Part shown: one piece after another, positions 1 to 50,414 of the stretch | How the letters are laid out: every line of letters begins with the position of its first letter | How positions within the stretch are numbered: the first letter of the stretch is position 1 | DNA from: Mytilus galloprovincialis | Taxonomy: Eukaryota | Assembly: GCF_965363235.1 (NCBI RefSeq) | Contig: NC_134842.1 | Location: 20,093,521-20,157,520, forward strand | Direction: 5' to 3' | Length of the DNA stretch: 64,000 nucleotides | Notes under the pieces: model-generated | Seen by the model: the letters and a program-made list of their open reading frames with translations, nothing else | What the model was told of the DNA's origin: nothing | The model's database searches: none | Position numbers and translations under genes: made by a program

Positions 1-1514
1 ACAAATCACAAAAGCTCAAAGGATTAAAAGGATTAGCATCAGATATGAGTATTCATGGTCCATGCATATCAAGCAAGCATGAGAACTATGATTTTGCAAG
101 CTGTATAAAATGTGATCAGTGGGTATCTCAAGCCCAACCATGGATCTCAAGATCACGTTTGATATGGCCTTCACCTGAACTTATTTCAAACATAACTTCA
201 TGCGGTACTTTATTTGTTCCAATCGGTAATAAGGGATCTACAAATGAGAATCTTCAGTGGCGAATATCATTTTCTGTTGCAGAGAAGATACTGATATATT
301 CTTTCAGTCATACCCAGCTACTATGCTATGCTTTGATAAAGATAGTATTGACAGAAATAGTGAACAGAGAGGAAGATATACAAGGTTTATTGTGTTCATA
401 CTTTCTGAAGACCCTGATGTTTTGGATGTCAGAAGAAATTGAAATATCAGTCTGGAGACCCGACAATATCATTCCCTGTTTTATGGCCTGTTTAAAAAGG
501 TTACTATACTGTATAGAATATTCAACGTTGTTACATTATTTCATTCCTGATAACAACTTGTTCTATTTAAGGTTTAACAGTAAACAGGAGAGCACATTAA
601 TCAACTTCCTAAAACAATCATACCAAAAAGGAATTGAAATTTTCTCATCATCTCAGACTTTACAGGATTACAGAAGATTTCCATGTGAAACTACAAGATC
701 AATGTGTGAAATAACTGTATTAATGCAAATAATTATAGAGAAGATACAGTCACCTTTTCCAAATACCTTACGCATATTGAACACTTTGCTGCATCATTGT
801 AAAACTGATTTATCCAAGGTTATCTTTCAACTGTCAACTGCAAGGGCATATCAAACAGTACCGTTTGGACTACCACATGTAAATAACCCAAGCAATAAGC
901 AGCAATACAAGCTCTACAAACGTGACATGAGCCAGTTGTTGGTTGGTGTACAGTCAGATGCAGTATCAGGATGGCTGCAATTGGCTTCTTTCTTCTATGG
1001 TCACAAAAACTATTTAACATCAACAGATATAATCGATTATACTTTGTCAAAATGTACAGATGAAGCAAGATTGTCAAAGATTTCACTGAAACAGACCAAG
1101 ACACCGAAGCTTATATCACTAGTTAAGAACATACCATCTCGATATTTCGTATTCCACAAGTTTAGATTAAATTCAGTTTTCCCAATGGAACTAAAGTGTC
1201 CTCATGCCTTCAATCCATTGGCCTCAATTAGTTCTCAACCATTTGCACATTTCCTCCGGTTTTTGTGTTGTTACCACCTCCATGACTTTGAATCATGTCA
1301 GTATTGTATAAACAAGTTATTAGAAACAGTTCGTAATTACATTCCATCAAGAGAACGGTATATAGATGTACATGCATATAATTTAATATTACTAGGAATA
1401 GCTTTTCAGATGTTAGGTGACAGAGATTCAGCAAGGAAATATTTTCATATGGCTGCGTATTATGATGAACATAACTTTACATGTGCTGCAATCAGATTGC
1501 ATCAGTTTTGCTGA
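1..1514 (+). CDS. Mab-21 domain / cGAS-like receptor (cGLR) family protein, copy 1. This is the C-terminal roughly 500 aa; the 5' part, presumably the NTase core, lies upstream of the window.
   Basis: The frame is open from window base 3 to the TGA at 1512-1514. The product contains 'LIWPSPE...FVPIGNKGSTNENLQWRISFSVAEKILI', which matches the cGAS/Mab-21 signature recalled from memory ('SWPASTQEGL...YLVPKHAKEG...ETWRLSFSHIEKEIL'). Near the start, 'NYDFASCIKC' resembles the segment around the third catalytic acidic residue ('VDITLALE' in cGAS, 'ITPAFKC' in MAB21L1). The whole copy is collinear with the paralogue at 30239-32907. Confidence 0.75.
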   Translation, partial: KSQKLKGLKGLASDMSIHGPCISSKHENYDFASCIKCDQWVSQAQPWISRSRLIWPSPELISNITSCGTLFVPIGNKGSTNENLQWRISFSVAEKILIYSFSHTQLLCYALIKIVLTEIVNREEDIQGLLCSYFLKTLMFWMSEEIEISVWRPDNIIPCFMACLKRLLYCIEYSTLLHYFIPDNNLFYLRFNSKQESTLINFLKQSYQKGIEIFSSSQTLQDYRRFPCETTRSMCEITVLMQIIIEKIQSPFPNTLRILNTLLHHCKTDLSKVIFQLSTARAYQTVPFGLPHVNNPSNKQQYKLYKRDMSQLLVGVQSDAVSGWLQLASFFYGHKNYLTSTDIIDYTLSKCTDEARLSKISLKQTKTPKLISLVKNIPSRYFVFHKFRLNSVFPMELKCPHAFNPLASISSQPFAHFLRFLCCYHLHDFESCQYCINKLLETVRNYIPSRERYIDVHAYNLILLGIAFQMLGDRDSARKYFHMAAYYDEHNFTCAAIRLHQFC

Positions 1515-6290: not shown

Positions 6291-7379
6291 TTAGTCAAAG
6301 TCTTTGTTAAAATAACATTTGTAAACCAAACACTGTGTATTCCGAATTCCGGTCTAATGATGGGTCCCAATACTCTTAATTACATCAATTATAACCTGTC
6401 AAAACCGGATTGTCTAATTAATTTTAAATAATAACAGTATTGTTTGATATGCAATGAAAACATATTTTTCAGGATAAATAATTAGACAGGGGTTAAACCG
6501 TGAACTTAAACATGGTATTAGTGAGCTGTTCTAGTGAAACAATGTGTCAATTACACTGAAAGGCACGCCGAATATATCTCGGATAGAACTTGCCTTGTAA
6601 CTTGGATAATATTTTTTAAATCGCAAAGTAACAAATGTTCATCGTGTCTTTCGAACTCCTGGTTCTCTGTTGCGAACCCCTCAACCAATTACCTTGATTA
6701 TTGATGAACACCCGTATGACAACAATCGATGTTGTCGTAGTGTACACTGTACGACAATGTTTCGATTGTGATTAAATTTTGTTTGATAAATGTACTGGCT
6801 TTTTAATCGGTCATACCAATGTTGGAAATTATCGATCATGGTGGTAAAACGAAAATCTTGTGTCACAATCCTAACAATGCGAGTATAATGATGCAAATGC
6901 AAACAACGAAAAGCAAAGTGAAAGTGAAATTGACAAGTCGGAAACTGATGCTACCCAGGTCTAATTGATATACAAGGATATGTAAATCAAGATTAAACTA
7001 ATATTTTTTCTTTAATTCGAGGAACAACCAGTTTCTTGAATTTCTATAGCCAATGAATATGAAGATTCAAAGCAACGATCATACGAACTTATTACGTTAT
7101 TGTGTTTTGTATTTACCAGTTTATAATTTACAATCAGACAGAATCTTCATATGCAACATATCGGACGTCACAAGTCATTCACTTCCGGTAAATACGGAAA
7201 TCTGAATAAACTAGCTCAGTGTCCGAAACGGCCTTTTTTATAGTCCCGTTGCCGGCCAGTTTATACAGGTTTTACTGTATATTAAGGGCTTATATTGGTT
7301 GGTTTCACTTTATATAACAAGGAGGTCTCAATAGTCTGAATCGCTCACCTTGATTTTTTGGCATTTATCTTTCGTTTAA

Positions 7380-8440
7380 GAGTCTTAGTGTCCAATTTCA
7401 TATTAGTTTGTTTTTCAAACAAATTGTGTAAATTTGTCCTTTAAAGGGCAATCACTCTTTAAGGAGTCAATTGACAATCTTGGTCATATGAACTTATTTG
7501 TAGATCTAACTTTACTGAACATATTTGCTGTTAACAGCTTATCTTTATCATTAAAACTATTCAAGATAATATCCAAACACTGCAAAATTTCCTAAAAATT
7601 ACCAATTTAGTGGCAGTAACCCAACAATGGGTTATTAAATTCATCTAAAAATTTCAGGGGTGATAGAACTTTACCTCATGCACACTTTAACCTAATGTCA
7701 GATTTGCTCTAACTGCTTTGGTTTTTGAAATATAAGCAAAACTGTTTACCCCTATGAACTATTTTTAGTCATGGCGGCCATATCTATCGACGAAACAAAA
7801 AATAAAACACAAACTATATTCTAGACATCCTAAGGATCATTCAGCTTAAGTTTGGTTGGAATTGTTTCAGTGGTTTCAGAAAAGAAGATTTTTTAAAGTT
7901 GGAAAACATAATAAACAGATTGTGTAAAAATGTCCTAAAAGGGCAATAACTCTTTAAGGGATCAATTGACACGTTTGGTCATATAAAAACTTATTTATAG
8001 ATCTTACTTTGTTGAACATATTTGCTGTTTACAGTTTATCTTTATCATTAGAACTATTCAAGATAATAACCAAAAACTACAAAATTTCCTTAAAATTACC
8101 AATTTAGTGGCAACAACCCAACAATGGGTCATAAGATTCATCTGAAAAGTTCAGGGCTGATAGAACTTTACCTTGTGAACACTTTAACTCATGTAAGATT
8201 TGCTCTAACTGCTTTGTTTTTGAGATATAGGCAAAAACTGCATTTTACCCCTATGTTTTATTCTTAGTCATGGCGGCCATGTTTTTTGACGGAACAGAAA
8301 ATAAAACACAAACTTTATTGTAAATACCCTAAGGATCATTCAGCTTAAGTTTGGTTGGAATTATTCGTTTCAGAGGAGAAGATGTGTCAAATAGTTTACA
8401 CAAGACGGACGACGACGTCGACGACAGACGACGACGGACG
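7380..8440 (+). repeat. Two tandem ~530-bp units of the Rep-B terminal sub-repeat family (includes the palindrome 'atggcggccat' and a (GACGAC)n tail).
   Basis: 7440-7900 is nearly identical in arrangement to 7920-8440. It is homologous to 5700-6290 and to 43900-44440 and 44440-44995. Confidence 0.65.
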
Positions 8441-8529
8441 CCAAGTGATGGCTAAAGCTCACAATTCCTTCGGAACGGTGAACTAAAAATGGGCAGTGGA
8501 GATAAATGTCGCTATCAAATCCGTGGAAG

Positions 8530-11500
8530 GGACAGTTTAACTTGTTACGTGAGGTGTAAGCTATTGTTCGAAGTTGATGACTGTGAAATGAAGAACAATA
8601 AAAGCACTGGTTTAGTTTTCTTTGTTTTATCAAGGACATACATGGATTGTGTGTCATGAATTTGAAACACAATATTCCATTTTTATGATAATTAAATATG
8701 TAATTCTTACCTAATGAATAAAATCCTTGTAACTTAAATATGTTATGTATTCAGTGTATGAAAAACCTAACATATTACACAGATCTGGTGTCAAGTTGTA
8801 AATTAAAATACAATAAAAATAATTTTGAAACCTAATATGTTCGAGGATATGGTGTCAAATTTAAAAATTGTCCCTGGAAAAATAAATACAATATATCAAA
8901 TAAATGTGAAATCAAACATGTAACATAAATAGGATGTCATGTTGTAAAATTGTGCCTGTAAAGTCAATTTGCATCTCCATTTCCTGACCTTTCCAAAAAT
9001 GAATATGCATAATATAAAATGTAGTCTGAGGAAAGTGGCTGGCTTTGAAACTAAATGTTGTCTGAAGAGAGTGTCTGGCTTTGATACTAAATGTAGTCTG
9101 AGGAGAGTGGCTGGCTTTGATACTAAATGTAGTCTGAAGAGAGTGGTTAGCTTTGATACTAAATGTAGTCTGTAGAGAGTGGCTGGCTTTGATACTAAAT
9201 GTAGTCTGAAGAGAGTGGCTGGCTTTGATACTAAATGTAGTCTGAAGAGAGTGGCTGGCTTTGATACTAAATGTAGTCTGAGGAGAGTGGCTGGCTTTGA
9301 TACTAAATGTAGTCTGAGGAGAGTGGCTGGCTTTGATACTTAATGTAGTATGAAGAGAGTGGCTAGCTTTGATACTAAATGTAGTCTAAAGAGAGTGGTT
9401 AGCTTTGATACTAAATGTTCTCTGTAGAGAGTGGCTGGCTTTGATACTAAATGTAGTCTGAAGAGAGTGGCTGGATTTGATACTAAATGTAGTCTGAAGA
9501 GAGTGGCTGGCTTTGATACTAAATGTAGTCTGAGGAGAGTGGCTGGCTTTGATACTAAATGTAGTCTGAAGAGAGTGGCTGGCTTTGATACTAAATGTAG
9601 TCTGAGGAGAGTGTCTGGCTTTGATACTAAATGTAGTCTGAGGAGAGTGGCTGGCTTTGATACTAAATGTAGTCTGAAGAGAGTGGTTAGCTTTGATACT
9701 AAATGTAGTCTGTAGAGAGTGTCTGGCTTTGATACTAAATGTAGTCTGAGGAGAGTGGCTGGCTTTGATACTAAATGTAGTCTGAAGAGAGTGGCTGGCT
9801 TTGATACTAAATGTAGTCTGAGGAGAGTGGCTGGCTTTGATACTAAATGTAGTCTGAAGAAAGTGGCTGGCTTTGATACTAAATGTAGTCTGAAGAGAGT
9901 GGTTAGCTTTGATACAAAATGTAGTCTGAGGAGAGTGGCTGGCTTTGATACTAAATGTAGTCTGAGGAGAGTGGCTGGCTTTGATACTAAATGTAGTCTG
10001 AAGAGAGTGGCTAGCTTTGATAATAAATGTTGTCTGAGGAGAGTGGCTGGCTTTGATACTTAATGTAGTATGAAGAGAGTGGCTAGCTTTGATACTAAAT
10101 GTAGTCTGTAGAGAGTGTCTGGCTTTGATGCTAAATGTAGTCTGAGGAGAGTGGCTGGCTTTGATACTAAATGTAGTCTGAAGAGAGTGGCTGGCTTTGA
10201 TACTAAATGTAGTCTGAGGAGAGTGGCTGGCTTTGATACTAAATGTAGTCTGAAAAGAGTGGCTGGCCTTGATACTAAATGTAGTCTGAAGAGAGTGGTT
10301 AGCTTTGATACAAAATGTAGTCTGAGGAGAGTGGCTGGCTTTGATACTAAATGTAGTCTGAGGATAGTGGCTGGCTTTGATACTAAATGTAGTCTGAAGA
10401 GAGTTGCTAGCTTTGATAATAAATGTTGTCTGAGGAGAGTGGCTGGCTTTGATACTTAATGTAGTATGAAGAGAGTGGCTAGCTTTGATACTAAATGTAG
10501 TCTAAAGAGAGTGGTTAGCTTTGATACTAAATGTAGTCTGTAGAGAGTGGCTGGCTTTGATACTAAATGTAGTCTGAAGAGAGTGGCTGGATTTGATACT
10601 AAATGTAGTCTGAAGAGAGTGGCTGGCTTTGATACTAAATGTAGTCTGAGGAGAGTGGCTGGCTTTGATACTAAATGTAGTCTGAAGAGAGTGGCTGGCT
10701 TTGATACTAAATGTAGTCTGAGGAGAGTGTCTGGCTTTGATACTAAATGTAGTCTGAGGAGAGTGGCTGGCTTTGATACTAAATGTAGTCTGAAGAGAGT
10801 GGTTAGCTTTGATACTAAATGTAGTCTGTAGAGAGTGTCTGGCTTTGATGCTAAATGTAGTCGGACGAGAGTGGCTGGCTTTGATACTAAATGTAGTCTG
10901 AAGAGAGTGGCTGGCTTTGATACTAAATGTAGTCTGAGGAGAGTGGCTGGCTTTGATACTAAATGTAGTCTGAAGAAAGTGGCTGGCTTTGATACTAAAT
11001 GTAGTCTGAAGAGAGTGGTTAGCTTTGATACAAAATGTAGTCTGAGGAGAGTGGCTGGCTTTGATACTAAATGTAGTCTGAGGAGAGTGGCTGGCTTTGA
11101 TACTAAATGTAGTCTGAAGAGAGTGGCTAGCTTTGATAATAAATGTTGTCTGAGGAGAGTGGCTGGCTTTGATACTTAATGTAGTATGAAGAGAGTGGCT
11201 AGCTTTGATACTAAATGTAGTCTGAAGAGAGTGGTTAGCTTTGATACAAAATGTAGTCTGAGGAGAGTGGCTGGCTTTGATACGAAATGTAGTCTGAGGA
11301 GAGTGGCTGGCTTTGATACTAAATGTAGTCTGAAGAGAGTGGCTACCTTTGATAATAAATGTTGTCTGAGGAGAGTGGCTGGCTTTGATACTTAATGTAG
11401 TATGAAGAGAGTGGCTAGCTTTGATACTAAATGTAGTCTGAAGAGAGTGGTTAGCTTTGATACAAAATGTAGTCTGAGGAGAGTGGCTGGCTTTGATACG

Positions 11501-14500
11501 AAATGTAGTCTGAGGAGAGTGGCTGGCTTTGATACTAAATGTAGTCTGAAGAGAGTGGCTACCTTTGATAATAAATGTTGTCTGAGGAGAGTGGCTGGCT
11601 TTGATACTTAATGTAGTATGAAGAGAGTGGCTAGCTTTGATACTAAATGTATTCTAAAGAGAGTGGCTGGCTTTATACTAAATGTAGTCTGAGGAGAGTG
11701 GCTGGCTTTGATACTAAATGTAGTCTGAAGAAAGTGGCTAGCTTTGATACTAAATGTAGTATGAGGAGAGTGGCTGGCTTTGATACTAAATGTAGTCTGA
11801 AGAGAGTGGTTAGCTTTGATACTAAATGTAGTCTGAAGAGAGTTATTGGCTTTGATACTAAATGTAGTCTGAAGGGAGTGGCTGGCTTTGATACTAAATG
11901 TAGTATGAGGAGAGTGGCTGGCTTTGATGCTAAATGTAGTCTGAGGAGAGTGGCTGGCTTTGATACTAAATGTAGTCTGAGGAGAGTGGCTGACTTTGAT
12001 ACTAAATGTAGTCTGAAGGGAGCAGCTGGCTTTGATACTAAATGTAGTCTGAGGAGAGTGGCTAGCTTTGATACTAAATGTAGTCTGAGGAGAGTGGCTG
12101 GCTTTGATACTAAATGTAGTCTGAAGAGAGTGGCTGGCTTTGATACTAAATGTAGTATGAAGAGATTGGCTGGCTTTGATACTAAATGTAGTCTGAGGAG
12201 AGTGACTGACTTTGATACTAATTGTACTATGAAGAGAGTGTCTGGCTTTGATACTAAATGTAGTCTGAGGAGAGTGGTTAGCTTTGATACTAAATGTAGT
12301 CTGAAGGGAGCAGCTGGCTTTGATACTAAATGTAGTATGAGGAGAGTGGCTGGCTTTGATGCTAAATGTAGTCTGAGGAGAGTGGCTAGCTTTGATACTA
12401 AATGTAGTCTGAGGAGAGTGGCTGACTTTGATACTAAATGTAGTCTGAAGGGAGCAGCTGGCTTTGATACTAAATGTAGTCTGAGGAGAGTGGCTAGCTT
12501 TGATACTAAATGTAGTCTGAGGAGAGTGGCTGGCTTTGATACTAATTGTACTATGAAGAGAGTGTCTGGCTTTGATACTAAATGTAGTCTGAGGAGAGTG
12601 GTTAGCTTTGATACTAAATGTAGTCTGAAGGGAGCAGCTGGCTTTGATACTAAATGTAGTCTCAGGAGAGTGGCTAGCTTTGATAATAAATGTAGTCTGA
12701 GGAGCGGGCTAGCTTTAATACTAAATGTAGTATGAAGAGAGTGACTAGCTTTGATACTTAATGTAGTCTGAGAAGAGTGGTTAGCTTTGATACTAAATGT
12801 AGTCTGAAGGGAGAAGCTGGCTTTGATACTAAATGTAGTCTGAGGAGAGTGGCTAGCTTTGATACTAAATGTAGTCTGAGGAGAGTGGCTGGCTTTGATA
12901 CTAAATGTAGTCTGAAGAGAGTGGATGGCTTTGATACTAAATGTAGTATGAAGAGTTTGGCTGGCTTTGATACTAAATGTAGTCTGAGGAGAGTGGCTGG
13001 CTTTGATACTAAATGTAGTATGAGGAAAGTGGTTAGCTTTGATACTAAATGTAGTATGAAGAGAGTGGCTAGCTTTGATACTAAATGTAGTATGAGGAGA
13101 GTGGCTAGCTTTGATACTAAATGTAGTCTGAAGAGAGTGGCTGGCTTTGATACTAAATGTAGTCTGAAGACAGTGTCTAGCTTTTATACTAAATGTAGTA
13201 TGAGGAGTGTGGCTAGCTTTGATAGTAAATGTAGTCTGAGGAGAGTGGCTGGCTTTGATACTAAATGTAGTCTGAAGAGAGTGGTAAGCTTTGATACTAA
13301 ATGTTGTCTGAAGAGAGTTATTGGCTTTGATACTAAATGTAGTCTGAATAGATTGTCTGGCTTTGATACTAAATGTAGTCTGAGGAGAGTGGCTGGCTTT
13401 GATACTAAATGTAGTCTGAGGAGAGTGGCTGGCTTTGATACTAAATGTAGTCTGAATAGATTGTCTGGCTTTGATACTAAATGTAGTCTGAGGAGAGTGG
13501 CTGGCTTTGATACTAAATGTAGTCTGAGGAGAGTGGCTGGCTTTGATACTAAATGTAGTCTGAAGAGAGTGTCTGGCTTTGATACTTAATGTAGTATGAG
13601 GAGAGTGGCTGGCTTTGATACTAAATGTAGTCTGAGGAGAGTGGTTAGCTTTCATACTAAATGTAGTCTGAAGAGATTGTCTGGCTTTGATACTAAATGT
13701 AGTATGAAGAGAAAGGCTGGCATTGATACTAAATGTAGTATGAGGAGAGTGGCTAGCTTTGATAGTAAATGTAGTCTGAAGAGAGTGTCTGGCTTTGATA
13801 CTAAATGTAGTCTGAAGAGAGTGGTAAGCTTTGATACTAAATGTTGTCTGAAGAGAGTTATTGGCTTTGATACTAAATGTAGTCTGAAGGGAGTGGCTGG
13901 CTTTGATACTAAATGTAGTATGAGGAGAGTGGCTGGCTTTGATATTAAATGTAGTCTTAGGAGAGTGGCTGGCTTTGATACTAAATGTAGTCTGAGGAGA
14001 GTGGCTGACTTTGATACTTAATGTAGTCTGAAGGGAGCAGCTGGCTTTGATACTAAATGTAGTCTGAGGAGAGTGGCTAGCTTTGATACTAAATGTAGCC
14101 TGAGGAGAGTGGCTGGCTTAAATACTAAATGTAGTCTGAAGAGAGTTGCTGGCTTTGATACTAAATGTAGTATGAAGAGATTGGCTGGCTTTGATACTAA
14201 ATGTAGTCTGAGGAGAGTGGCTGGCTTTGATACTAAATGTAGTATGAAGAGAGTGTCTGGCTTTGATACTAAATGTAGTCTGAGGAGAGTGGCTGGCTTT
14301 GATACTAAATATAGTCTGAGGAGAATGGTTAGCTTTGATAGTAAATGTAGTCTGAGGAGAGTGGCTGACTTTGATACTAAATGTAGTCTGAAGGGAGCAG
14401 CTGGCTTTGATACTAAATGTAGTCTGAGGAGAGTGGCTAGCTTTTATACTAAATGTAGTCTGAGGAGAGTGGCTAGCTTTAATACTAAATGTAGTATGAA

Positions 14501-17500
14501 GAGAGTGACTAGCTTTGATACTTAATGTAGTCTGAGGAGAGTGGTTAGCTTTGATACTAAATGTAGTCTGTGGAGAGTGGCTAGCTTTGATACTAAATGT
14601 AGTCTGAGGAGACTGGCTGGCTTTGATACTAAATGTAGTCTGAAGAGAGTGGCTGGCTTTGATACTAAATGTAGTATGAAGAGATTGGCTGGCTTTGATA
14701 CTAAATGTAGTATGAAGAGATTGGCTAGGTTTGATACTGAATGTAGTATGAAGAGATTGGCTGGCTTTGATACTCAATGTAGTCTGAGGAGAGTGGTTGA
14801 CTTTGATACTAAATGTAGTCTGAAGGGAGCAGCTGGCTTTGATACTAAATGTAGTCTGAGGAGAGTGGCTAGCTTTGATACTAAATGTAGTCTGAGGAGA
14901 GTGGCTAGCTTTAATACTAAATGTAGTATGAAGAGAGTGACTAGCTTTGATACTTAATGTAGTCTGAGGAGAGTGGTTAGCTTTGATACTAAATGTAGTC
15001 TGAGGAGAGTGGCTAGCTTTGATACTAAATGTAGTCTGAGGAGAGTGGCTGGCTTTGATACTAAATGTAGTCTGAAGAGAGTGGCTGGCTTTGATACTAA
15101 ATGTAGTATGAAGAGATTGGCTGGCTTTGATACTAAATGTAGTCTGAGGAGAGTGGCAGGTTTTGATACTAAATGTAGTATGAGGAGAGTGGCTAGCTTT
15201 GATACTAAATGTAGTCTGAAGAGAGTGGCTGGCTTTGATACTAAATGTAGTCTGAAGACAGTGTCTAGCTTTGATACTAAATGTAGTCTGAGGAGGGTGG
15301 CTGGCTTTGATACTAAATGTAGTCTGAAGAGAGTGGCTGGCTTTGATACTAACTGTAGTATGAAGAGAGTGGCTAGCTCTGATACTAAATGTAGTCTGAA
15401 GAGAGTGGCTGGCTTTGATACTAAATGTAGTATGAAGAGAGTGACTAGCTTTGTTACTAAATGTAGTCTGAAGAGAGTGGCTGGCTTTGATACTAAATGT
15501 AGTCTGAAGAGAGTGGCTAGCTTTGATACTAAATGTAGTCTGAAGAGAGTGACTAGCTTTGATACTAAATGTAGTATGAAGAGAGTGACTAGCTTTGATA
15601 CTAAATGTAGTCTGAAGAGAGTGGCTGGCTTTGATACTAAATGTAGTCTGAAGAGAGTGGCTGGCTTTGATACTAAATGTAGTATGAAGAGAGTGACTAG
15701 CTTTGATACTAAATGTAGTCTGAAGGGAGCAGCTGGCTTTAATACTAAATGTAGTCTGAGGAGAGTGGTTAGCTTTGATACTAAATGTAGTATGAAGAGA
15801 GTGACTAGCTTTGATACTAAATGTAGTCTGAGGAGAGTGGCTGGCTTTGATACTAAATGTAGTCTGAAGAGATTGTCTGGCTTTGATACTAAATGTAGTC
15901 TGAGCAGAGTGGCTGGCTTTGATACTAAATGTAGTCTGAGGAGAGTGGCTGGCTTTGATACTAAATGTAGTCTGAAGAGAGTGTCTGGCTTTGATACTAA
16001 ATGTAGTATGAGGAGAGTGGCTGGCTTTGATACTAAATGTAGTCTGAGGAGAGTGGTAAGCTTTGATACTAAATGTAATATGAAGAGAGTGGCTGGCTTT
16101 GACACTAAATGTAGTCTGAAGAGAGAGGCTGGCATTGATACTAAATGTAGTATGAGGAGAGTGGCTAGCTTTGATAGTAAATGTAGTCTGAAGAGAGTGT
16201 CTGGCTTTGATACTAAATGTAGTCTGAAAAGAGAGGCTGGCATTGATATAAAATGTAGTATGAAGAGAGTGGCTAGCTTTGATACTAAATGTAGTCTGAG
16301 GAGAGTGGCTGGCTTTGATAAAACTAAATGTAGTATGAGGAGAGTGGCTGGCTTTGATACTAAATGTAGTCTGAAGAGAGTGTCTGGCTTTGATACTAAA
16401 TGTAGTCTGAAAAGAAGTGGTTACTTTGATACTTAATGTAGTCTGAAGTGATACTAAATGTAGTCTGAAGTGATACTAAATGTATTTTGAAGAGAGTGGT
16501 AAGCTTTGATACTAAATGTAATCTGAAGAGATTGTCTGGCTTTGATACTAAATGTAGTCTGAGGAGAGTGGCTGGCTCTGATACTAAATGTAGTCTGAGG
16601 AGAGTGGCTGGCTTTGATACTAAATGTAGTCTGAAGAGAGTGGCTGGCTCTGATACTAAATGTAGTCTGAGGAGAGTGGCTGGCTTTGATACTAAATGTA
16701 GTCTGAAGAGAGTGGCTGGCTTTGATACTAAATGTAGTATGAGGAGAGTGGCTTGCTTTGATACTAAATGTAGTCTGAGGAGAGTGCTAAGCTTTGATAC
16801 TAAATGTAGTAATAAGAGAGTGGCTGGCTTTGATACTAAATGTAGTCTGAAGAGAGAGGCTGGCATTGATACTAAATGTAGTATGAGGAGAGTGGCTAGC
16901 TTTAATAGTAAATGTAGTCTGAAGAGAGTGTCTGGCTTTGATACTAAATGTAGTCTGAAGAGAGAGGCTGGCATTGATATAAAATGTAGTATGAAGAGAG
17001 TGGCTAGCTTTGATACTAAATGTAGTCTGAGGAGAGTGGCTGGCTTTGATACTGAATGTAGTACGAGGAGAGTGGCTGGCTTTGATACTAAATTTAGTCT
17101 GAAGAGAGTGGCTGGCTTTGATACTAAATGTAGTATGAGGAGAGTGGCTGGCTTTGATACTAAATGTAGTCTGAAGAGAGTTTCTGGCTTTGATACTAAA
17201 TGTAGTCTGAAAAGAAGTGGTTACTTTGATACTAAATGTAGTCTGAAGTGATACTAAATGTAGTCTGAAGTGATACTAAATGTATTTTGAAGAAAGTGGT
17301 AAGCTTGGATATTAAATGTAGTCTGAAGAGAGTTACTGGCTTTGATACTAATCATAGTCTTAGAGAATGGCTGGCTTTGATACTAAATGTTGTCTGAAGA
17401 GAATGGCTGGCTTTGATACTATATTGAGTCTGAAGAGAGTGGCTGGCTTTGATACTATATTTAGTCTGAAGAGAGTGGCTGGCGATGATACTAAATGTAG

Positions 17501-20400
17501 TCTAAAGAGAGTTTTTGGCTTTGATACTAAATGTAGTCTGAGGAGAGTGACTCGCTTTGATACTAAATTTAGTCTGAAGAGAGTTTTTGGCTTTGATACT
17601 TAATGTAGTCTGAAGAGAGTGGCTGGCTTTGATACTAAATGTAGTCTGAAGAGAGTGGCTGGCTTTGATACTAAATGTAGTCTGAAGAGAATGGCTGGCT
17701 TTGATACTAAATGTAGTCTGAAGAGAGTGGCTGGCTTTGATACTAAATGTAGTCTAAAAAGAGTGGCTGGCTTTGATACTATATGTAGACTGAAGAGAGT
17801 GGCTGGCTTTGATACTAAATGTAGTCTGAGGACAGTGGCTAGCTTTGATACTAAATGTAGTCTGAAGAGAGTGGTTAGCTTTGATACTAAATGTAGTCTG
17901 AAGAGAGTTATTGGCTTTGATACTAAATGTAGTCTAAAGAGAGTGGCTGGCTTTGATACTATATCTAGACTGAAGAGAGTGACTAGCTTTGATACTAAAT
18001 TTAGTCTGAAGAGAGTGTTTGGCTTTGATACTTAATGTAGTCTGAAGAGAGTGGCTGGCTTTGATACTAAATGTAGTCTGAAGAGAGTGGCTGGCTTTGA
18101 TACTAAATGTAGTCTGAAGAGAATGGCTGGCTTTGATACTAAATGTAGTCTGAAGAGAGTGGCTGGCTTTGATACTAAATGTAGTCTAAAAAGAGTGGCT
18201 GGCTTTGATACTATATGTAGACTGAAGAGAGTGGCTGGCTTTGATACTAAATGTTGTCTGAGGTGAGTGGCTAGCTCTGATACTAAAATTTAATGAAGTA
18301 TGAGGAGAGTGGCTGGCTTTGATACTAAATGTAGTCTGAAGAGAGTGGCTGGCTTTGATACTAAATGTAGTCTGAGGAGAGTGGCTGGCTTTGATACTAA
18401 ATGTAGTCTGTAGAGAGTGTCTGGCTTTGATACTAAATGTAGTCTGAGGAGAGTGGCTGGCTTTGATACTAAATGTAGTCTGAAGAGAGTGGCTGGCTTT
18501 GATGCTAAATGTAGTCTGAGGAGAGTGGCTGGCTTTGATACTAAATGTAGTCTGAAGAGAATGGTTAACTTTGATACTTAATGTAGTCTGAGGAGAGTGG
18601 CTGGCTTTGATACTAAATGTAGTATGAAGAGAGTGTCTGGCTTTGATACTAAATGTAGTTGAGGAGAGGGGCTAGCTTTGATACTAAATGTAGTCTGAAG
18701 AGAGTGGCTAGCTTTGATACTAAATGTAGTATGAAGAGAGTGGCTAGTTTTGATACTAAATGTAGTCTGAAGAGAGTGGTTAGCTTTGATACTAAATGTA
18801 GTATGAGGAGAGTGGTTAGCTTTGATACTAAATGTAGTCTGAAGAAAGTTATTGGCTTTGATACTAAATATAGTCTGAAGGGAGCAGCTGGCTTTGATAC
18901 TAAATATAGTCTAAAGAGAGTGGCTGGCTTTGATACTAAATGTTGTCCGAAGAGAGTGCCTGGCTTTGATACTATATTTAGACTGAAGAGAGTGGCTCTC
19001 TTTGATACTTAATGTAGTCTTGAATGTTGAAATAATTTATTATATATCTTCACAAATACTGTTACATCACAAAGTATCCCGAAGTGCTTGCAATTTGTTC
19101 TCACATTTTTCATACAGGTTTTGGCATGTCATGCAAATGAAAACACTAGACACGAGCTAACACCAAGTATAAATATTATACGTGTATATCTTTATTTATT
19201 ATAAACTTCATACAGAGAAGGTTATTTAACTTAGCTTACCTCATATAAGGGAGGTATAACATTCAATGACAAGTCCTTGCCATATTTCTCCTAAGTCTGA
19301 TTGGTCTGTAAATAATGGAAACAATACGTAAAAAATAAGATAAACACATGAATAAAATATCATCAAAACAAAGTTATCTATAAAAGAAGTTCTTTTTTAG
19401 CATTAATTGGATTTTTTTTAGGATTATTAAAACCATGTTATGCCCCACTATCAAAAATTAAGAGCTATATATTTTTTGAGAAAACCTATCCTTGAAAATT
19501 TGATAATACTAAAAACATTGCAATAATTTCTGAATCAACCTAACTAAAATTAAATCTCCACACTCGCTCATTTTCTTATGATTGGTCGCTGCTTGGGAGC
19601 TCCTTACTTTTTAGATTATTTATTCTTTTTATTGACTGTAGGCTTTTTAATGGAAATAAAGTACAAAATGGAAGGAGCTAAAAGTTTTTTGGATGCATTT
19701 TCAATGTGTTTTGAATTTGGAACGTCTTTGACAATGTGTTGACGAAACAAATTGTTGTATGAAATCAAAGATATAAAATTATTTCTTTTTTATTTAAAAG
19801 GAATCTTAATTTGAGTTCATTCATTGCAACATTTGGAATAATGACCATTGGTTTGTTTACTGATTTCTATAAATAAAGAAATTTTTGCATGCATTTATTA
19901 TCACAATTTTTATTGAATAAACAAAAATAAAAGTAAAATCATTGTGATTTTATGAAATAAGCTGACAACAAATATATTCATTTGGTATAAGAATGAGACG
20001 GTGTATTGCAATATTCGAGTATTTGCCTTATAAGCATGATTGATGAAAACCTCAAACTAATTTCCGAACTTATATAACCAATTATTAATATGCTCTGTAC
20101 TGTTCCTGTATATGGAATTCAATTGATTAATCATTAGTACAAAGAACTTCAGTTTGCATTATTGATACACACGTCTACATTCATCATAGTATGACTCTTT
20201 AACATTACTCACAATTCATGTAACTCCATATTAATTGTTATATTATCAATACCTTTGTTTTCTTTATTTTCCGATATTTCTCTTTAAGGTTTCTACAATT
20301 AAAAAGGGCCATAATCATCTAATCAATTATGTATTCAATATGTGGATACATTATCGCTGAGAAGTCATTTTAGTTTCAGGTATAAAAACAAACAATTTTT
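8530..20400 (+). repeat. Duplicated or dispersed element (~2.4 kb without the array) that hosts the satellite. Left arm 8530-9020, right arm 19020-~20400.
   Basis: Both arms have a paralogue at 47505-49950 in which the arms are separated by only ~1.3 monomers. Compare 8950-9060 with 48585-48700, and 19020-19330 with 48700-49020. Confidence 0.7.
9020..19020. repeat. Satellite DNA array with a 36-bp monomer (consensus approximately CTAAATGTAGTCTGARGAGAGTGGCTGGCTTTGATA), about 278 copies, with several higher-order repeat periodicities.
   Basis: The 36-bp periodicity is directly visible. Because 36 is a multiple of 3 and the monomer lacks stops in 4 of 6 frames, the ORF track shows long artefactual ORFs ('FDTKCSLRRVAG'n). 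Identical ORF blocks recur at offsets of 1116 bp (9431 vs 10547; 9719 vs 10835), 216 bp (11186 vs 11402), 432 bp (17619 vs 18051; 14525 vs 14957) and ~796 bp (16410 vs 17205). The 3' part (17300-19015) is more heterogeneous. Confidence 0.95.
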
Positions 20401-22729
20401 CAATGAATAAATATATATATATACTTTTGTACTAGTAAGGTGTATATTTAAATATGCAAGTTATCATTTTACCAATTATTAAACCCAACTAATTTTTAAA
20501 TCAGAACAGTCTCTTCCATGAAGCATTTTTTTATTTACACACTAATGATATGTATTTATGTATGTATCTTGGTTTTTGTTTTGCCAACATATTATTCATA
20601 GTATTCATCTTAAAATGCATAATTAACCTAATATGTTCGTAATCAAATTGATGGCAATTGTGATTACAATTCAATTACGCAGTTTTCAATATTGAACCAG
20701 TATATTAATCCATAGTTAATATTCAAATTGATACAAAACTCTGGAAGTACTAACACATGAACTAAGTTGGTCGAAATATTGATTGAACCGTTCTTAGATA
20801 GAAGACGTTGTAATTCATTACTACAGGCTCCAAACTATAGTTAAATGGGATAATGTTATTCAACTATGGCTTATTTATAATATATAAGAAACAGTGTGTA
20901 ACCATAAAAAAAAAAAAAAAATGAACGATAAAATGAGGTCAAGGTCAAATAAACCCTGCCAAAGTCATATTAGAATTATTCCATACACCAAATAAAGTTG
21001 TCCTGTAACTATTTGAATCATAGAAAAACAGGCACTGCTCATGTACTGATGCTCCTCTAACTTCACACTCATTGAGAGAAAATATTGTTATTTCAAACGT
21101 TCAAAATACAAGTAGAAGTAGGACTGGAAGGACAAACAAAACATATCGAACCATGTTACAATTCAAAATCAGAAACTAGAGTTGTCATTCAAAAACACGA
21201 TGACAAGCAAGGACTATATCCTTAGACATTTTAAAGACTTGAGTTTCAATAGTATCACTCAGATTACAATTCTACCTTGACATCTAAGTTAGTATTTAGC
21301 CTAGAAAATACATATTTAGCCTTGAAAATTGAAAGGTCAGTTTATCCTGTTCATACAATAGAATTTTACCTATGAGGGTCTGAATGGGTTTTACAGAATA
21401 GCTAATAGAAAATAAAAGCAATTAGGTAATGAATTACTGATGAAATAAGTGATCAATGTACTAAACTGACTGAGTAAACGTGACTCCTATTATGTGTATT
21501 CAGCACACTCAGGTATCGTGACTTACACTAAAATATTGTTGACTAAAGTGAATGGCACATGTACCTGGAAAAATGATCATCTGTTCGTTTTTTTGGATTT
21601 TTTCTCTGGCAATCAATTACTATTGTGTTGGTGTGTTCACTAATGAAACTGTTGGTTTTAAAAATTGTAAAGTAAATTAAATGACATAGGGTGAAGGGCT
21701 TGATAGCAATGGAAACAACAACAAAATTCCCTCCTGCCATCCCATCCCCAAGAATATCAAATGGTCTAAACCTTATTGATAAAGTAGGGTTTCATGGGAT
21801 TGAAGCAATATGAATAAAAAATAAGAAAACAAATCAATGATCACGGGTGAAAGAAACTTTGATATGTTCCCCTCAGGTTTTGTTGAATTGAAAACAATCC
21901 TTAAATGGATTTGCTTTTCCAATATACCTTTGTTTCAATTTTCATTGGGAACTATCATCTGTATGAAAATCAAATACTATTTACATAAACAATATAATTT
22001 TGTTAAATGATTTTTTACCAAACTTTCAAATATCAAAATGACCAAACATTATGCAGGTCAAGGATATATCACTCATATTGTTTGGTAACTTGTACATCTA
22101 GTCAAACTGGTTTGGTATCACTGACAGTTTGCTCCTGCCCTGGATGTCTATTTCACAGTGATCTTATGTGTTTGTGCTTTATAGAGTACATTGTACTGAT
22201 ATTCATTGAATTTCTGTTGGGGCATGACCTAAACATGCTAAACAGTGGCATGATATTTCAATTTAATACGAATCAATATAATCTTTAAGCTTATCTTATA
22301 TGAACTAATACTGGTACAAAAAATAAAGTTTAGGATTTTTTTCATCCTGGTTGATGATGCTTTTTTGGGACTTGGATGTTTTCTGATTCTTGTTCACATT
22401 ATTATTATTTTAACCTTCAATGCACATATTGACATTTTTTTAAGATATGTAGTAAACAGTTATATTTTTTTTCAATTTGTTAAATCAATTTCTTAACTTT
22501 GAACAATGGTAATGAAAAATAAAAGACTTATGCCATTCTATTTTCAAACCCTAATGATCAATGCAATTAAAAGGCCTAAAATAACATTAACAGATTTTTA
22601 TCAAGTAATTCAAGATGCACAATGTTTAAGTATAGGTCAGAATATCATAAGGGTTCTTTTGTACTTGAATTATTCCATCAACTCCTATTGTTCAATCTCA
22701 AGGCTAAATGTGTATTTTCTAGGCTAAAT

Positions 22730-30238: not shown

Positions 30239-32907
30239 ATGTCTCACAGTAAAACGGAATGTTTATATTTTTATAAATATTTGTGTCAGAAAATTGGATC
30301 AGAGAAAGTTGTAAGCGCTAGACGATTGACATCTATAAGTAGATATTTTACAATGTCGGGCAGAATTATCCCTCATATAAGCAGTGGAAGTAAGACAGAA
30401 GGACTGGATCTTAAAGGTAGTGATACTGATATTATGTGTATTGATCCTGCATTTATAGTATATAAATCAGATAAAGATGTTGTCCAGAATAGAAGGATAG
30501 CATTAGTAATGGATACCGAGGACACACCACCGTGTTTTACACAACTACAACCATATACGAATGTAAATAACTTACCAAACGTCTATAAACAACAGCTACA
30601 ATACCACGGAAGAAAAATCCTACTTTCAAGTGAGCTTTACAAGTCACAAGCATTAAAAGAAATACAAGATATATCTCCAAAGACAAAAGGAAAACGCATA
30701 TTCATGTTTCATGCGTATCGGACATTGATGATAATTTTGATTAAGCAATGTGCCTTAAATGTGATTAGTGGTTATGGCAGGCACAACCATGGATATCTAG
30801 ACCACGTTTAATATGGCCTTCACCGGAAATTATTTCAAAAATAACTGCATGCGGTACTCTATTTGTTCCAATTGGTAACAAGGGATCTATACACGAGAAC
30901 CTTCAGTGGCGAATATCCTTTTCTGTCGCTGAGAAGATATTGATATATTCTTTCAGTCATACCCAGCTTCTATGCTATGCTTTGATAAAGAGATTATTGA
31001 AAGAAATAGAAAATGAAAGGGAAGACTTCAAAGATTTATTGTGTTCATACTTTTTGAAGACCCTTATGTTTTGGATGTCAGAAGAAAATGAACCATCAGT
31101 CTGGAGACCAGATAATATCATTCCATGTTTTATGGCCTGTTTAAAAAGGTTACTATACTGTATAGAGTATTCAACGTTATTACATTACTTCATTCCTGAT
31201 AACAACTTGTTCTATTTGAGGTTTAACAATAAACAAAGGAACACATTAATCAACTTCCTAAAACAATCATACCAAAAGGAAATTCAGGTTTTCTCATTAT
31301 CTCAGACTTTACATGATTACAGATGATTTTCATGTAAAACTACAAGATCAATGAGTGAAATAACTACAACAATAAAAACAATGACAGAGTACAAACACTC
31401 ACCTATTTAAAAAATCTTAGGCTTATTGATCACTTTGCTGAATCATTGTAAAACTGAATTATCCAGATGTATCTTTCAGATTTCTTTTGCAAGTGCATAT
31501 CAAATAATACCTTTTGCACTACCACAAATAAAAAAAAACAACCAATAAACAGCAATACAATTCTACAAACATGACCTCAGCCAGTTGTTGGTTGGTTTAC
31601 GGTCAGATTCAAGATCAGGGTGGCTGATATTGGCCTCTTTCTTCTACAGTTACCAAAAGTATTTAACATCAACAGATATAATCAATTACACTTTGTCAAA
31701 AGGTACAGATGAATCATCTTTATCAAAGATTACACTGAAACAGAAAAAGACACTGAAACTAATATCTCTACTACCAGCACCATATGTTTCATTTTACAGG
31801 ATGACATTTATTTCAGTCATCCCACTGGAACTAAAGTCTCCTCATGACTTTGGTATGGCGGTATTTATAAGTTCCATACCATTTGCACATTTCCTCCGTT
31901 TTCTGTGTTGTTACCATATACAGGACTTTGCATCAAGTAGGTATTGTATAAATAAATTGTCAAAGTCAACTTGTTCTATTTAAGATTTAACAATTAAAAG
32001 ATCCTAAAGAAAACATACCAAACAGGTATTCAGATTTTCTCAATTTCTCAGACTTTACAGGATTATAGAAGATTTACATGTGAAACTATAAGATCAGTGT
32101 GTGAACTAGCTATACAATAATGAAAATCATTGAAGAGAAGACAGAGTCACATTTTGTTAACAATTTACTACTCATAGTGAACATTTTAATGCATCATTGT
32201 AAAACTGACTTATCCAGAGTTATATTTAAACGGTCAGTTGCAAGGATATATCACATAAGGCCTATTGTTCTACTACATGTAAATAACCCAAACAATAAAC
32301 ACCATTACAAACTTTACAAACATGACTGCAGCAAGTTGTTGATTGGTGTACAGTCAGATGCAGGTGGCTGATATTGGCATCTTTCTTCTACAGTCACCAA
32401 AATTATGTAACATCAATTGATATAATCAATTATACTTTGTCAAAATGTACCGATGAATCATCTTTGTCAAAGATAACACTAAAACAGACGAATAAACTGA
32501 TATTCATATCACTATGTGAGACGCGTCAAACTTAATTTGTCTCATTAATGAAGTTTTTGATGAAATTAGTCATTCCAATGGAACTAAAGTCTCTTTATGA
32601 CTTTGGTATATTTGTAGTAATAAGTTCCATATCATATTCACATTTCCTACGTTTTCTGTGTTGTTACCATCTCCATGACTTCAAATCAAGTCGGTATTGT
32701 ATAAATATGTTATTAGAAACAGTAAGTGAATACAGTCAGTCGAGAGAACAAAAAGCATTTGAAAATGTATATAATTTAATTCTACTAGGAATAGCTTTAG
32801 AGATGTTAGGTGAGAGAGATTTAGCAAGAAAATATTTCCATATTGCTGCAGATAAAGATCCAGATAACTGTATATGTGCTGCATTCAGACTGTGTCAACA
32901 AAGCTGA
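30239..32907 (+). pseudogene. cGLR / Mab-21-domain nucleotidyltransferase paralogue, copy 2. The N-terminal NTase core is intact; the C-terminal half is disrupted.
   Basis: The N-terminal ORF 30239-30811 carries 'HISSGSKTEGLDLKGSDTDIMCI', the pol-beta NTase motif GS-x10-DxD with the same spacing as cGAS GS212/E225/D227. A nucleotide-level alignment to copy 1 shows three defects: a net +1 frameshift near 30720-30755 (CAG in copy 1 corresponds to TAG here at ~30753), a nonsense codon AGA to TGA at 31324, and further stops at 31407, 31536 and beyond. Segment ~31200-31975 is tandemly duplicated as ~31975-32560. The last ORF (32548-32907) still aligns to the C-terminus of copy 1 ('HFLRFLCCYHLHDF.S..YCIN.LLETV...NLILLGIA..MLG.RD.ARKYFH.AA'). 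Confidence 0.65.
31200..32560 (+). repeat. Internal tandem duplication, two diverged units of ~0.6-0.78 kb, inside cGLR copy 2.
   Basis: The copy-1-like stretch 'NNLFYLRFN...QTLQDYRRF.CET.RS.CE..' appears at 31200-31340 and again at 31975-32100. 'LVG.QSD...GWL.LASFFY...Y.TS.DII.YTLSK.TDESSLSKITLKQ' appears at 31585-31760 and again at 32330-32490. Confidence 0.6.
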
Positions 32908-47400: not shown

Positions 47401-47504
47401 ATAATGCCCCTCTACTATCGTAGGTGGGGCATACAAATCTATCATGAAAAGATATATGCTCTGTATTTACTTGACATGCAGCAAATCATGATCAAACCAG
47501 TGCT

Positions 47505-49950: not shown

Positions 49951-50414
49951 AATAATTACGGTATAAACTGTTATCACAGAGATATGTCTCGCTTTTTTGT
50001 ATTTTCAATAAAGCAAATGTTGGGAGCTGTATCAATTACATGGTCATTATATGGTCATTTTAATTAATTTGCTGTTGACAAAACTTTAAATTTTTTGAAA
50101 AACTAAGGATTTCTTATCTTAGGAATAGATTACCTTAGTCATATTTGGCACAACTTTTTGGAATTTTGGGTCCTCAATGCTCTTCAACTTTGTACTTGTT
50201 TGGCTTTATAACTATTTTGATCTGAGTGTCACTGATGAGTCTAATAATGTAGACGAAACATGCTCCTGTCATATTAAATTATAATCCTGGTACCTTTGAT
50301 AACTATTTACAACATTTGGTCAATGCCACTGTTGGCGGATGTTTCGTGGGGCGAGTTGGCAGGAGAAAAGATAACAGGATTTAACCCTTTTCACAAGTCA
50401 GGTGAGTTGGTAAA

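Follow-up and report, generated by a model that had tools for sequence, protein, structure and literature searches.

The window analysed here, a stretch of 64,000 nucleotides from Mytilus galloprovincialis, contains a tandem segmental duplication of about 20 kb, in which positions 50-20413 (copy A) are collinear with positions 30012-49958 (copy B). About 14 blocks, 68-87% identical, keep their order and orientation from a gene to a pair of arms and are separated from each other by lineage-specific transposon insertions. In copy A the proximal end of the duplicated segment is marked by a Mab-21/cGLR-like gene (Pfam Mab-21_C, 6.7e-15; Mab-21, 8.6e-07), the ORF of which is open up to the window edge. 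This gene has 546 homologues, and all the named ones among the 120 matches listed are from Mytilus. The Mab-21-like gene of copy B is probably a pseudogene, since it is broken into four ORFs and carries an internal partial duplication. At the distal end, the two arms enclose a 36-bp array in copy A and a single unit in copy B (Table 1).

Table 1. Coordinates of the features discussed, in positions of the window
Feature	Positions	Strand	Evidence
Mab-21/cGLR-like gene, copy A	45..1514	+	Pfam domains, homologues, collinear blocks
HINE/Helentron-like non-autonomous element	7417..8489	-	repeat features according to the list in PMC7492417
Left arm, copy A	8514..9016		BLAST, MAFFT alignment
Array, 277 full units	9017..19009	+	TRF, composition profile, wrap-around segmentation, block duplications
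Truncated terminal unit TAATGTAGTCTTGAATG	19010..19026	+	sequence read, alignment
Right arm, copy A	19027..20413		BLAST, MAFFT alignment
Mab-21-like gene, copy B	30239..32907	+	collinear blocks, ORF list, Pfam
Left arm, copy B	47491..48650 (47491-47923 + 48563-48650)		BLAST, alignment
Unexpanded site, one 36-bp unit + second direct repeat	48651..48703	+	sequence read, alignment, monomer search
Right arm, copy B	48704..49958		TRF, BLAST, alignment

By BLAST, the left arm of copy A matches copy B at 8514-8921 (47491-47923; 74%, E = 1e-67) and 8929-9016 (48563-48650; 85%), and the right arm at 19021-19440 (48698-49145; 78%, E = 1e-100), 19330-19791 (49157-49621; 87%, E = 3e-157) and 20153-20413 (49677-49958; 80%). 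In the MAFFT alignments the left arms are 79-85% identical (K2P 0.17-0.24) and the right arms 85-88% (K2P 0.13-0.17). Several differences between the copies are structural. A 640-bp insertion seen only in copy B (47924-48562), which contains a MITE with 40-nt terminal inverted repeats (47956-48313), divides the left arm there; a 124-bp sequence that is single in copy A forms a perfect two-copy tandem duplication in the right arm of copy B (49030-49277); and a 360-bp stretch of the right arm of copy A (19792-20152) is absent from copy B. The left arm of copy A consists of unique non-coding DNA, with three degenerate repeats of about 80 bp in its last 230 bp or so. The initial annotation had described the arms at 8530-20400 and 47505-49950 as paralogous and the duplicated stretch as a segmental duplication. 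Both descriptions agree with the collinear blocks that run from the gene to the arms, and the limits are now 8514-20413 and 47491-49958; the homology of the left arm of copy A may start as early as 8490, directly after the end of a HINE-like element. The arms are the distal part of the collinear duplication, which also includes the Mab-21-like gene.

The array is the only one called by TRF at its position (9017-19020; period 36, 277.3 copies, 88% matches, 0% indels), with the consensus unit AAATGTAGTCTGAAGAGAGTGGCTGGCTTTGATACT. Wrap-around alignment divides 9017-19026 into 277 full 36-bp units and a truncated unit of 17 bp, and only 12 of the 277 full units contain indels. On average the units are 93.8% identical to the consensus and 89.6% identical to each other (a mean pairwise difference of 10.4%), with 130 distinct sequences among the 277. 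The GC skew of the fully internal bins is +0.47 to +0.50 in the composition profile. With a total of 10,010 bp and 277 units, this head-to-tail array reaches the kilobase range and has a unit above microsatellite size, as expected of a satellite.

The array is non-coding. In the open plus-strand frame, variation at the three codon positions is 287/251/85 and thus lowest at third positions, and the plus-strand ORFs across the array are repeatedly interrupted; the variation fits none of the other reading frames either. No function is needed to explain the array, which shows no coding signature. The folding results do not support a hairpin that could stall replication: a dimer of the consensus folds no better than shuffled sequences (z = +1.0), the same is true of the unexpanded site in copy B (z = -0.5), and good folding is limited to a minority variant of the unit.

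In copy B, the homologous position is occupied by AAATGTAGTCAAGAGAGAGTGACTGGCTTTGATACT followed by AATTGTAGTCTTGAATG. The first 36 bp (48651-48686) share 32 of their 36 positions with the array consensus (89% identity); the four differences lie inside the range of the arm divergence. The unit of copy B has AAG at positions 11-13, and a G at position 13 is seen in 0 of the 277 array units. The next 17 bp (AATTGTAGTCTTGAATG, 48687-48703) are a second direct repeat, which has 15 of its 17 positions in common with TAATGTAGTCTTGAATG, the tail at the array end in copy A. The right flanks of the two copies align from the base directly after this 17-bp tail. The short state of 53 bp amounts to 1.47 units if counted by length and to about 1.3-1.4 if only real homology is counted. 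Earlier counts of about 278 monomers in copy A and about 1.3 in copy B are close to these values: copy A has 277 full units plus the 17-bp remnant, and the string quoted for copy B is that at 48651-48703, about 1.4 units.

The unit of copy B is bounded by AAATGTAGTCAAG and AATTGTAGTCTTG, which form a direct repeat, imperfect and 10-14 bp long (AAATGTAGTC(T).GAA). The pattern of the whole site is AAATGTAGTC, 26 nt, AATTGTAGTC, and the repeat core is identical at 9 of 10 positions. We infer that the ancestor had AAATGTAGTC(T) twice, 36 bp apart. In copy A the first array unit begins with AAATGTAGTCTGA, and the truncated unit that closes the array corresponds to the second of the two bounding direct repeats and was never homogenised to the array consensus. 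In the minisatellite birth models of Haber and Louis (1998) and Taylor and Breden (2000), as summarised in PMC3389668, an array arises when short direct repeats, flanking or non-contiguous, misalign; in both models the unit lies between direct repeats of 5-10 bp and the array closes with an incomplete unit. Such a birth predicts a single unit between short direct repeats (about 5-20 bp) in an unexpanded homolog, as present in copy B, and an incomplete terminal unit matching the repeat, as present in copy A, where TAATGTAGTCTTGAATG is followed at once by the flank that aligns with copy B. Taken together, the array ends and the site in copy B carry the signature of both published models.

Tandem repeats in bivalves may also be carried by transposons. 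In principle, a MITE or a Helitron/Helentron non-autonomous element could have supplied the arms as its flanks and the 36-bp units as its central repeats, and copies A and B would then be two insertions with different repeat numbers. The window is indeed rich in such elements, and a HINE-like element, whose end carries a palindrome (8441-8489) and which also has a (GACG)n microsatellite (8404-8440) and central repeats of about 490 bp, adjoins the left arm of copy A, its end being only 24 bp away. Bivalve HINEs are known to have central tandem repeats, and their flanks are well characterised: a 5′ subTIR, a complementary inverted repeat and a microsatellite on the left, and a 3′ subTIR and a palindrome on the right (PMC7492417). 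However, the terminus of the HINE-like element faces away from the array, and the array lies outside this element, which is not part of the array-bearing unit. No terminal inverted repeats were found at 8514/20413 or 47491/49958, and none join the arms; no microsatellite, subTIR or palindrome was found beside the 36-bp array. Moreover, the A/B homology runs on collinearly far past the arms, through another 10 kb or so of unique duplicated DNA, the gene included. For comparison, ten paralogous Mytilus loci (229 kb), reached via protein homologues, were searched. The arms have 0 matches in these loci, a small sample relative to the genome, and the monomer is likewise absent there, whereas true transposons of the window (2947-3614, 4634-5153 and the MITE in copy B) recur in most of the ten. 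A transposon origin is thus very unlikely, and the link to MITEs or Helitrons proposed in the initial annotation is not borne out by arms that have neither terminal inverted repeats nor Helentron/HINE substructures and that form the distal part of the roughly 20-kb collinear duplication. Like Cg_HINE and the pearl/CvA-type Helentron elements, the present case is a satellite-like array in gene-rich DNA of a bivalve genome; unlike Cg_HINE, it lacks a subTIR, inverted repeat, microsatellite and 3′ palindrome, its flanks are not dispersed among the loci searched, it is 10 kb long, and it lies outside the adjoining HINE-like element (PMC7492417).

The monomer is also confined to this locus in the data searched. 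With up to 9 mismatches allowed on both strands, the window yielded no copy beyond those of the array and copy B; a 20-mer of the monomer has 276 matches in the window, compared with 0.02 expected by chance. For the monomer, the JGI metagenomes gave only two chance matches of 22-25 nt, and IMG/VR gave none; the arms did not turn up in the JGI metagenomes either. No predicted proteins were found on such arrays. Neither the monomer nor the arms are mentioned in the literature searched. From the searches of the window, the 229 kb of Mytilus loci, the JGI metagenomes and the literature, we read the array as locus-specific, and "locus-specific large minisatellite" would be a safer name than "satellite" in the genome-wide sense. 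These data also bear on the possibility that a genome-wide 36-bp satellite was inserted into copy A, either during microhomology-mediated repair or as circular DNA that reintegrated. Such spread is documented for Rsp-like repeats in Drosophila (PMC7403614), and the short repeat at the site could have acted as microhomology. Nevertheless, import has an extremely small probability here, given the missing copies elsewhere and the full unit of paralog B, which stands at the homologous position between continuous flanks. Because paralog B has this single copy, the monomer is native to the locus rather than imported.

Within the array, some blocks of 6-21 units are 98-100% identical to each other. 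Such pairs include one of 21 units offset by 31 units (99.3% identity), one of 12 offset by 6 (99.5%), one of 11 offset by 20 (98.2%) and one of 10 offset by 11 (98.6%). Altogether, 131 of the 277 units belong to blocks of at least 6 units with at least 97% identity to another block. No array-wide higher-order period was found: the autocorrelation is flat, at 89.3-90.5% for all lags, the best lags (12, 20, 6, 14, 11 and 49 units) lift the mean identity only from 89.4% to 90.5%, and only local blocks stand out. As in satellite higher-order repeats, multi-unit blocks are far more alike than neighbouring units, but here they form a patchwork of local block duplications instead of a single array-wide period. 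The array has evidently grown by multi-unit block duplications. Euchromatic 1.688 and Rsp-like arrays of Drosophila likewise expand within a locus by unequal exchange and by movement or duplication of multi-unit blocks, and short homologies matter at their boundaries too; in contrast to those satellites, which spread to new loci, the native unit described here gives no evidence of spread (PMC7403614).

The internal blocks, 98-100% identical, can be compared with the arms (K2P 0.13-0.24), and this comparison supports a far younger age for much of the array than for the A/B duplication. The mean pairwise difference between units, 10.4%, also lies below the K2P range of the arms. No transposon insertions were found within the 10 kb of the array; the roughly 10 kb of non-array DNA in the duplication have at least two A-specific and at least four B-specific insertion sites. 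Haplotype duplication is a known problem of mussel assemblies, and tandem arrays are difficult to assemble, so that the array length or the duplication itself could in theory be a product of long-read mis-assembly or haplotig duplication. This is scarcely credible, since the divergence between the two copies, 13-24% together with many transposon insertions, is far above the allelic level, and the array is built of structured, non-identical units (130 distinct of 277) without a collapsed or stuttered consensus.

Overall, this is probably a locus-specific non-coding array that can be classed as a very large minisatellite or as a young, satellite-like array. It lies in the intergenic tail of one copy of an old tandem segmental duplication of a Mab-21/cGLR-like gene region. 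Its start state would be the one still visible in paralog B, a single 36-bp stretch between imperfect direct repeats of 10-14 bp. Judging from the structure of the ends, the first duplication may have arisen by misalignment of the two non-contiguous repeats, through replication slippage or unequal sister-chromatid exchange; such misalignment would make the array start exactly at the first repeat and close in a truncated unit equal to the second. Once at least two units were present, unequal exchange or gene conversion could have raised their number to 277 in copy A, with later growth largely by duplication of multi-unit blocks. The expansion would postdate the A/B duplication.

This order of events is likely on grounds of parsimony (one event instead of two) and of the youth of the array, although ongoing turnover of an old array would make it look just as young. 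Conversely, the array may be older than the A/B duplication and may have shrunk in copy B, by unequal exchange or single-strand annealing, to one unit and a remnant, while copy A kept turning over. A single unit is an absorbing end state of unequal exchange, the same junctions would be expected, and continuous turnover would also leave shallow divergence and no transposon insertions in the array. Such a collapse is nonetheless unlikely: it needs two events, birth and collapse; copy B has no trace of former units; and its unit combines a position-13 G foreign to the array with a distance from the consensus no greater than that of the arms. An outgroup locus was sought by protein search via a neighbouring clathrin-like gene, and none was found.

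Expansion after the duplication would resemble the Haber-Louis and Taylor-Breden models (PMC3389668) in the repeat-bounded unit of the homolog (with imperfect repeats of 10-14 bp here), the incomplete end unit and the later growth by unequal exchange. It differs from the cases described there in that old paralogs (K about 0.17) are compared instead of alleles or orthologs, with polarity assigned by parsimony. With 277 units spanning 10 kb at a single nuclear locus, the array is also clearly larger than typical minisatellites.

The proposed mechanism is decades old and has known parallels, so that current understanding is unchanged; the case is of use as an example and for the repeat annotation of mussel genomes. 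With the proto-site and the expanded array kept as paralogs no more than 40 kb apart, it is a clean sequence-level illustration of array birth. Satellite-like repeats of bivalves are usually traced to Helentrons or MITEs, and at least one large array, the one described here, has no visible transposon parent. It is rather doubtful that the locus is the de novo birthplace, with both states caught, of a satellite family now spreading or abundant in the mussel genome; in the same vein, the array might add to the structural instability of this immune gene cluster or to its presence-absence variation. If the locus were such a birthplace, the unit may have come from unique sequence bounded by direct repeats inside the cGLR/Mab-21 cluster and not from a transposon, and the locus would depart from the transposon-centred view of where bivalve satellites come from.

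In copy A, the upstream of two paralogous segments carrying Mab-21-like genes (genes A and B), Tandem Repeats Finder run on the window reports a single dominant array at 9017-19020, with a period of 36, 277.3 copies, 88% matches, no indels and the consensus unit AAATGTAGTCTGAAGAGAGTGGCTGGCTTTGATACT. Wrap-around alignment to this consensus resolves the array, which opens with AAATGTAGTCTGA, into 277 full units and a truncated 17-bp unit, TAATGTAGTCTTGAATG (19010-19026). Indels are present in 12 of the full units, including two 44-bp variants (at 16434 and 17234). Identity of a unit averages 93.8% with the consensus and 89.6% with the other units. The plus strand is G-rich: in the composition profile the GC skew is +0.47 to +0.50 in fully internal bins of the array and about 0 elsewhere. 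By its length the array is a satellite.

The initial annotation had described a paralog with the same arms around a short string of the unit. When the array flanks were compared by BLAST with the remainder of the window, this paralog, copy B, was recovered with small coordinate changes only, in five matches (E-values from 1e-22 to 3e-157). Aligned pairwise, the arms of the two copies are 79-88% identical (Kimura two-parameter divergence, K, 0.13-0.24). Between its arms copy B reads AAATGTAGTCAAGAGAGAGTGACTGGCTTTGATACT and then AATTGTAGTCTTGAATG (48651-48703). The first 36 bp of this proto-site agree with the array consensus at 32 of 36 positions, and its 17-bp tail corresponds to the one that closes the copy A array; the right flanks are alignable from the base directly after the tail. 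A search of the whole window found no further monomer copies. The same position thus exists in the two states that the annotation had claimed, 277 units plus a remnant in A and one unit plus a 17-bp tail in B, and the sequence observation proves both correct and clean.

The one unit of the copy B proto-site has a short and imperfect direct repeat at its boundaries, AAATGTAGTCAAG ... AATTGTAGTCTTG; in its simplest form, the ancestral site may have been AAATGTAGTC(T) present twice, 36 bp apart. In the model of Haber and Louis, a segment with flanking direct repeats of 5-10 bp is duplicated through slippage or unequal crossing-over, while that of Taylor and Breden invokes slipped-strand mispairing at non-contiguous repeats, the hallmark of which is an incomplete terminal unit (both summarised in PMC3389668). 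Both features required by these models, direct repeats and an incomplete terminal unit, are present here. The initial duplication would have taken place at the direct-repeat-bounded unit, and later growth would have proceeded as segments of several units were repeatedly exchanged unequally. Comparing the array with itself by megablast was uninformative, and an analysis of the diagonals of the unit distance matrix took its place. There, blocks of 6-21 successive units reappear with 98-100% identity at lags of 6, 11, 12, 20 and 31 units, and 131 of the 277 units lie within such blocks. A five-position variant code of the units gives a patchwork of local motifs, and no array-wide higher-order period was found. 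Together, this is the pattern expected of repeated multi-unit unequal exchange. Birth from a direct-repeat-bounded unit followed by unequal-exchange growth is therefore well supported by the anatomy, the birth mechanism being a textbook model that is already known. Hairpin stalling was rejected as a general cause of the first slippage, because neither the consensus dimer nor the proto-site folds better than shuffled sequences do; only a minority C10A/G25A variant folds well (z = -4.2).

Other features of the arms deserve mention. In both copies the 36-bp site is immediately preceded by three to four degenerate repeats of about 80 bp with the core GGTGTCAAGTTGTAAAATTGTCCCTG; it was already in repeat-prone DNA. 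In the right arm of copy B, a 124-bp sequence occurs twice in tandem at 49030-49277 with 100% identity, against a single copy in copy A (19330-19440); this is a first-step tandem duplication of very recent date in that region. The arms are best conserved at 19440-19790 versus 49270-49621 (88% for the stretch as a whole, near 95% in runs). CCAAT-like and TATA-like motifs occur there on the minus strand, and the stretch may be a promoter remnant or a conserved non-coding element.

Coordinates of features in the window and in fetched Mytilus loci
Feature	Copy A, window or locus	Copy B	Remarks
Arm match	8514-8921	47491-47923	BLAST, flanks vs rest of window
Arm match	8929-9016	48563-48650	BLAST, 88-bp block, E = 1e-22
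Arm match	19021-19440	48698-49145	BLAST, flanks vs rest of window
Arm match	19330-19791	49157-49621	BLAST, flanks vs rest of window
Arm match	20153-20413	49677-49958	BLAST, flanks vs rest of window
Collinear block	50-1595	30699-32988	
Collinear block	2130-2943	33198-34039	
Collinear block	3615-3750	34043-34181	
Collinear block	3797-4048	39764-40023	
Collinear block	4309-4496	40109-40292	
Collinear block	4488-4623	43007-43147	
Collinear block	5152-5274	43142-43264	
Collinear block	5370-6203	43547-44412	
Collinear block	7431-8277	43963-44813	
Collinear block	arms	arms	end of series
Lineage-specific insertions	2947-3614, 4634-5153	34182-39763, 40293-43006, 44875-47490, 47924-48562	
Degenerate ~80-bp repeats	8771-9000	47762-47886, 48325-48365, 48561-48601	
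HINE-like family, further copies	5370-6203; L012 19561-21655	43547-44874	
MITE copies		47956-48313, 44984-45263	
52-bp-type arrays	L008 2110-3119; L001 18719-19269		M. trossulus; M. edulis
Tandem array	58704-60224		87/174 bp over ~1.5 kb
Tandem array	50417-50709		31 bp x 9.5, 94%
Tandem array	40986-41410		43 bp x 10
Tandem array	40428-40607		32 bp x 5.6

When the window is compared with itself after masking of the array, the arms turn out to be no discrete element but the closing blocks of a long A/B series, identical in order and orientation and 68-87% in sequence. Two of the blocks, at 5370-8277, belong to a transposon family, and their A/B match may stem from that. In the first block of copy A, the ORF 45-1514, open to the window edge, matches Pfam Mab-21_C (6.7e-15) and Mab-21 (8.6e-07); the array lies 7.5 kb downstream of this gene. 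Gene B (30239-32907) has the same domains in four broken ORFs and an internal partial duplication (31203-31954 / 31967-32707). A partial third copy of the Mab-21-bearing unit is present at 50720-51563. Among the named matches listed, the homologues of the Mab-21 ORF are Mytilus proteins, some named cGAS-like receptors. Over the full query, amino-acid identity is no more than 67-71% for the best of those listed, indicating that the database holds no ortholog of the gene; one partial match reaches 80% over 46% of the query. The Mab-21 genes of the window may be unannotated or dispensable (presence-absence) genes. The alignments thus show that a cGLR/Mab-21 gene and about 8-9 kb of DNA downstream of it were copied together in an old tandem segmental duplication, and the A/B divergence is far beyond allelic.

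The expansion probably took place in copy A after this duplication, a timing that had been asserted from the sequence alone and that we consider likely. It is favoured since it needs one event, whereas an array older than the duplication needs two, birth before the duplication and then collapse in copy B. Divergence is 0-2% for the recent block duplications and averages 10.4% over all pairs of units; K of the arms is 0.13-0.24. No transposon insertions are found in the 10-kb array, while a comparable amount of flanking duplicated DNA has them at six or more sites. Moreover, positions 11-13 of the copy B unit read AAG, and not one of the 277 array units has a G at position 13. On the other hand, ongoing turnover of an old array would produce the same shallow divergence and purge insertions, and a single unit is the natural end state of contraction by unequal exchange. 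We regard a collapse in copy B as unlikely. Clathrin-propeller-like exons (53-57.5 kb), used as a protein anchor to orthologous B loci, gave no matches.

The initial annotation had also linked the array to MITE or Helitron elements, and this association is rejected. First, neither copy has inverted repeats at the arm ends. Second, no microsatellite, subTIR or palindrome lies beside the array; these flanking features define bivalve Helentron non-autonomous elements (HINEs; PMC7492417). Third, ten loci (229 kb) from M. edulis, M. trossulus, M. galloprovincialis and M. californianus were fetched through the closest Mab-21 homologues, and the arms and the monomer are absent from all of them. The true transposons of the window recur in most of these loci, often at 85-98% identity. 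All ten are paralogs, with about 73-84% nucleotide identity within the gene. In the M. trossulus locus L008 (protein P0004), 141-11742 is collinear with window 50788-51237 and 22945-31958 (68-87%): it matches the 7 kb upstream of gene B, and immediately before this it has the segment found after the genes in the window. At the junction, this older paralogous unit lacks the stretch where the window has the arms, and a stretch possibly with arms lies beyond the 10-kb flank fetched. Finally, a HINE-like element on the minus strand (7417-8489) neighbours the array. It has a palindrome-bearing end of about 50 bp (GCTCACA..GGTGA(A/G)C, then TAAAAA), central repeats of about 490 bp and a (GACG)n microsatellite at 8404-8440; its family also occurs in the M. 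californianus locus L012 at 72-76% identity. Synteny of L012 up to window 8495 was rejected, the match being this transposon only. Since the terminus of the element faces the arm and the L012 similarity stops exactly there, the array is outside the element.

The real case of a MITE turning into a tandem repeat in this window is a 52-bp array at 24146-25067, the unit of which is the terminal inverted repeat region (first ~52 bp) of a MITE found elsewhere in the window. A 168/169-bp repeat family (46977-47437, 52482-52718, 57010-57291 and 56243-56614) looks like a second Helentron/pearl-type family; a (GGAC)n microsatellite (56567-56614) comes after one copy, and another copy ends just left of the copy B left arm. 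Tandem repeats are unusually abundant in the window. Scans of its whole length gave neither Rfam families nor tRNA genes. Exon-like minus-strand ORFs at 57184-57537 (Pfam Clathrin_propel, 2.4e-06), 54092-54418 and 53092-53280 resemble the N-terminal propeller of clathrin heavy chain; they are strongly diverged, and a word-based protein database search found no homologues.

Three of the six frames of the array are open because the 36-bp unit contains no stop codons in them, and the plus-strand ORFs are interrupted many times. A coding repeat-protein reading was rejected: variation shows no excess at third codon positions, being lowest there in the open plus frame, and the pattern fits no frame. 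A 660-aa minus-strand open frame (11673-13655) matches Pfam DUF7486 (E = 3.9e-12), most likely as a repeat or composition artefact.

Besides the rest of the window and the 229 kb of Mytilus loci, other collections were also negative for the monomer. A 20-mer of the monomer gave only two chance matches of 22-25 nt in JGI metagenomes and none in IMG/VR viral contigs, and a 487-aa open frame of the array has no homologues in the protein database. In the searchable literature, the monomer string is in no paper text and no Mytilus satellitome with this unit was found. These negatives favour a locus-specific array. Pre-existing satellites have been described as spreading to new sites in Drosophila (PMC7403614). 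In contrast to such import, the unit here is native to the locus, given its single copy in paralog B, which argues against a pre-existing satellite having entered the site. If the locus were the source of a satellite family spreading genome-wide, the case would be worth more.
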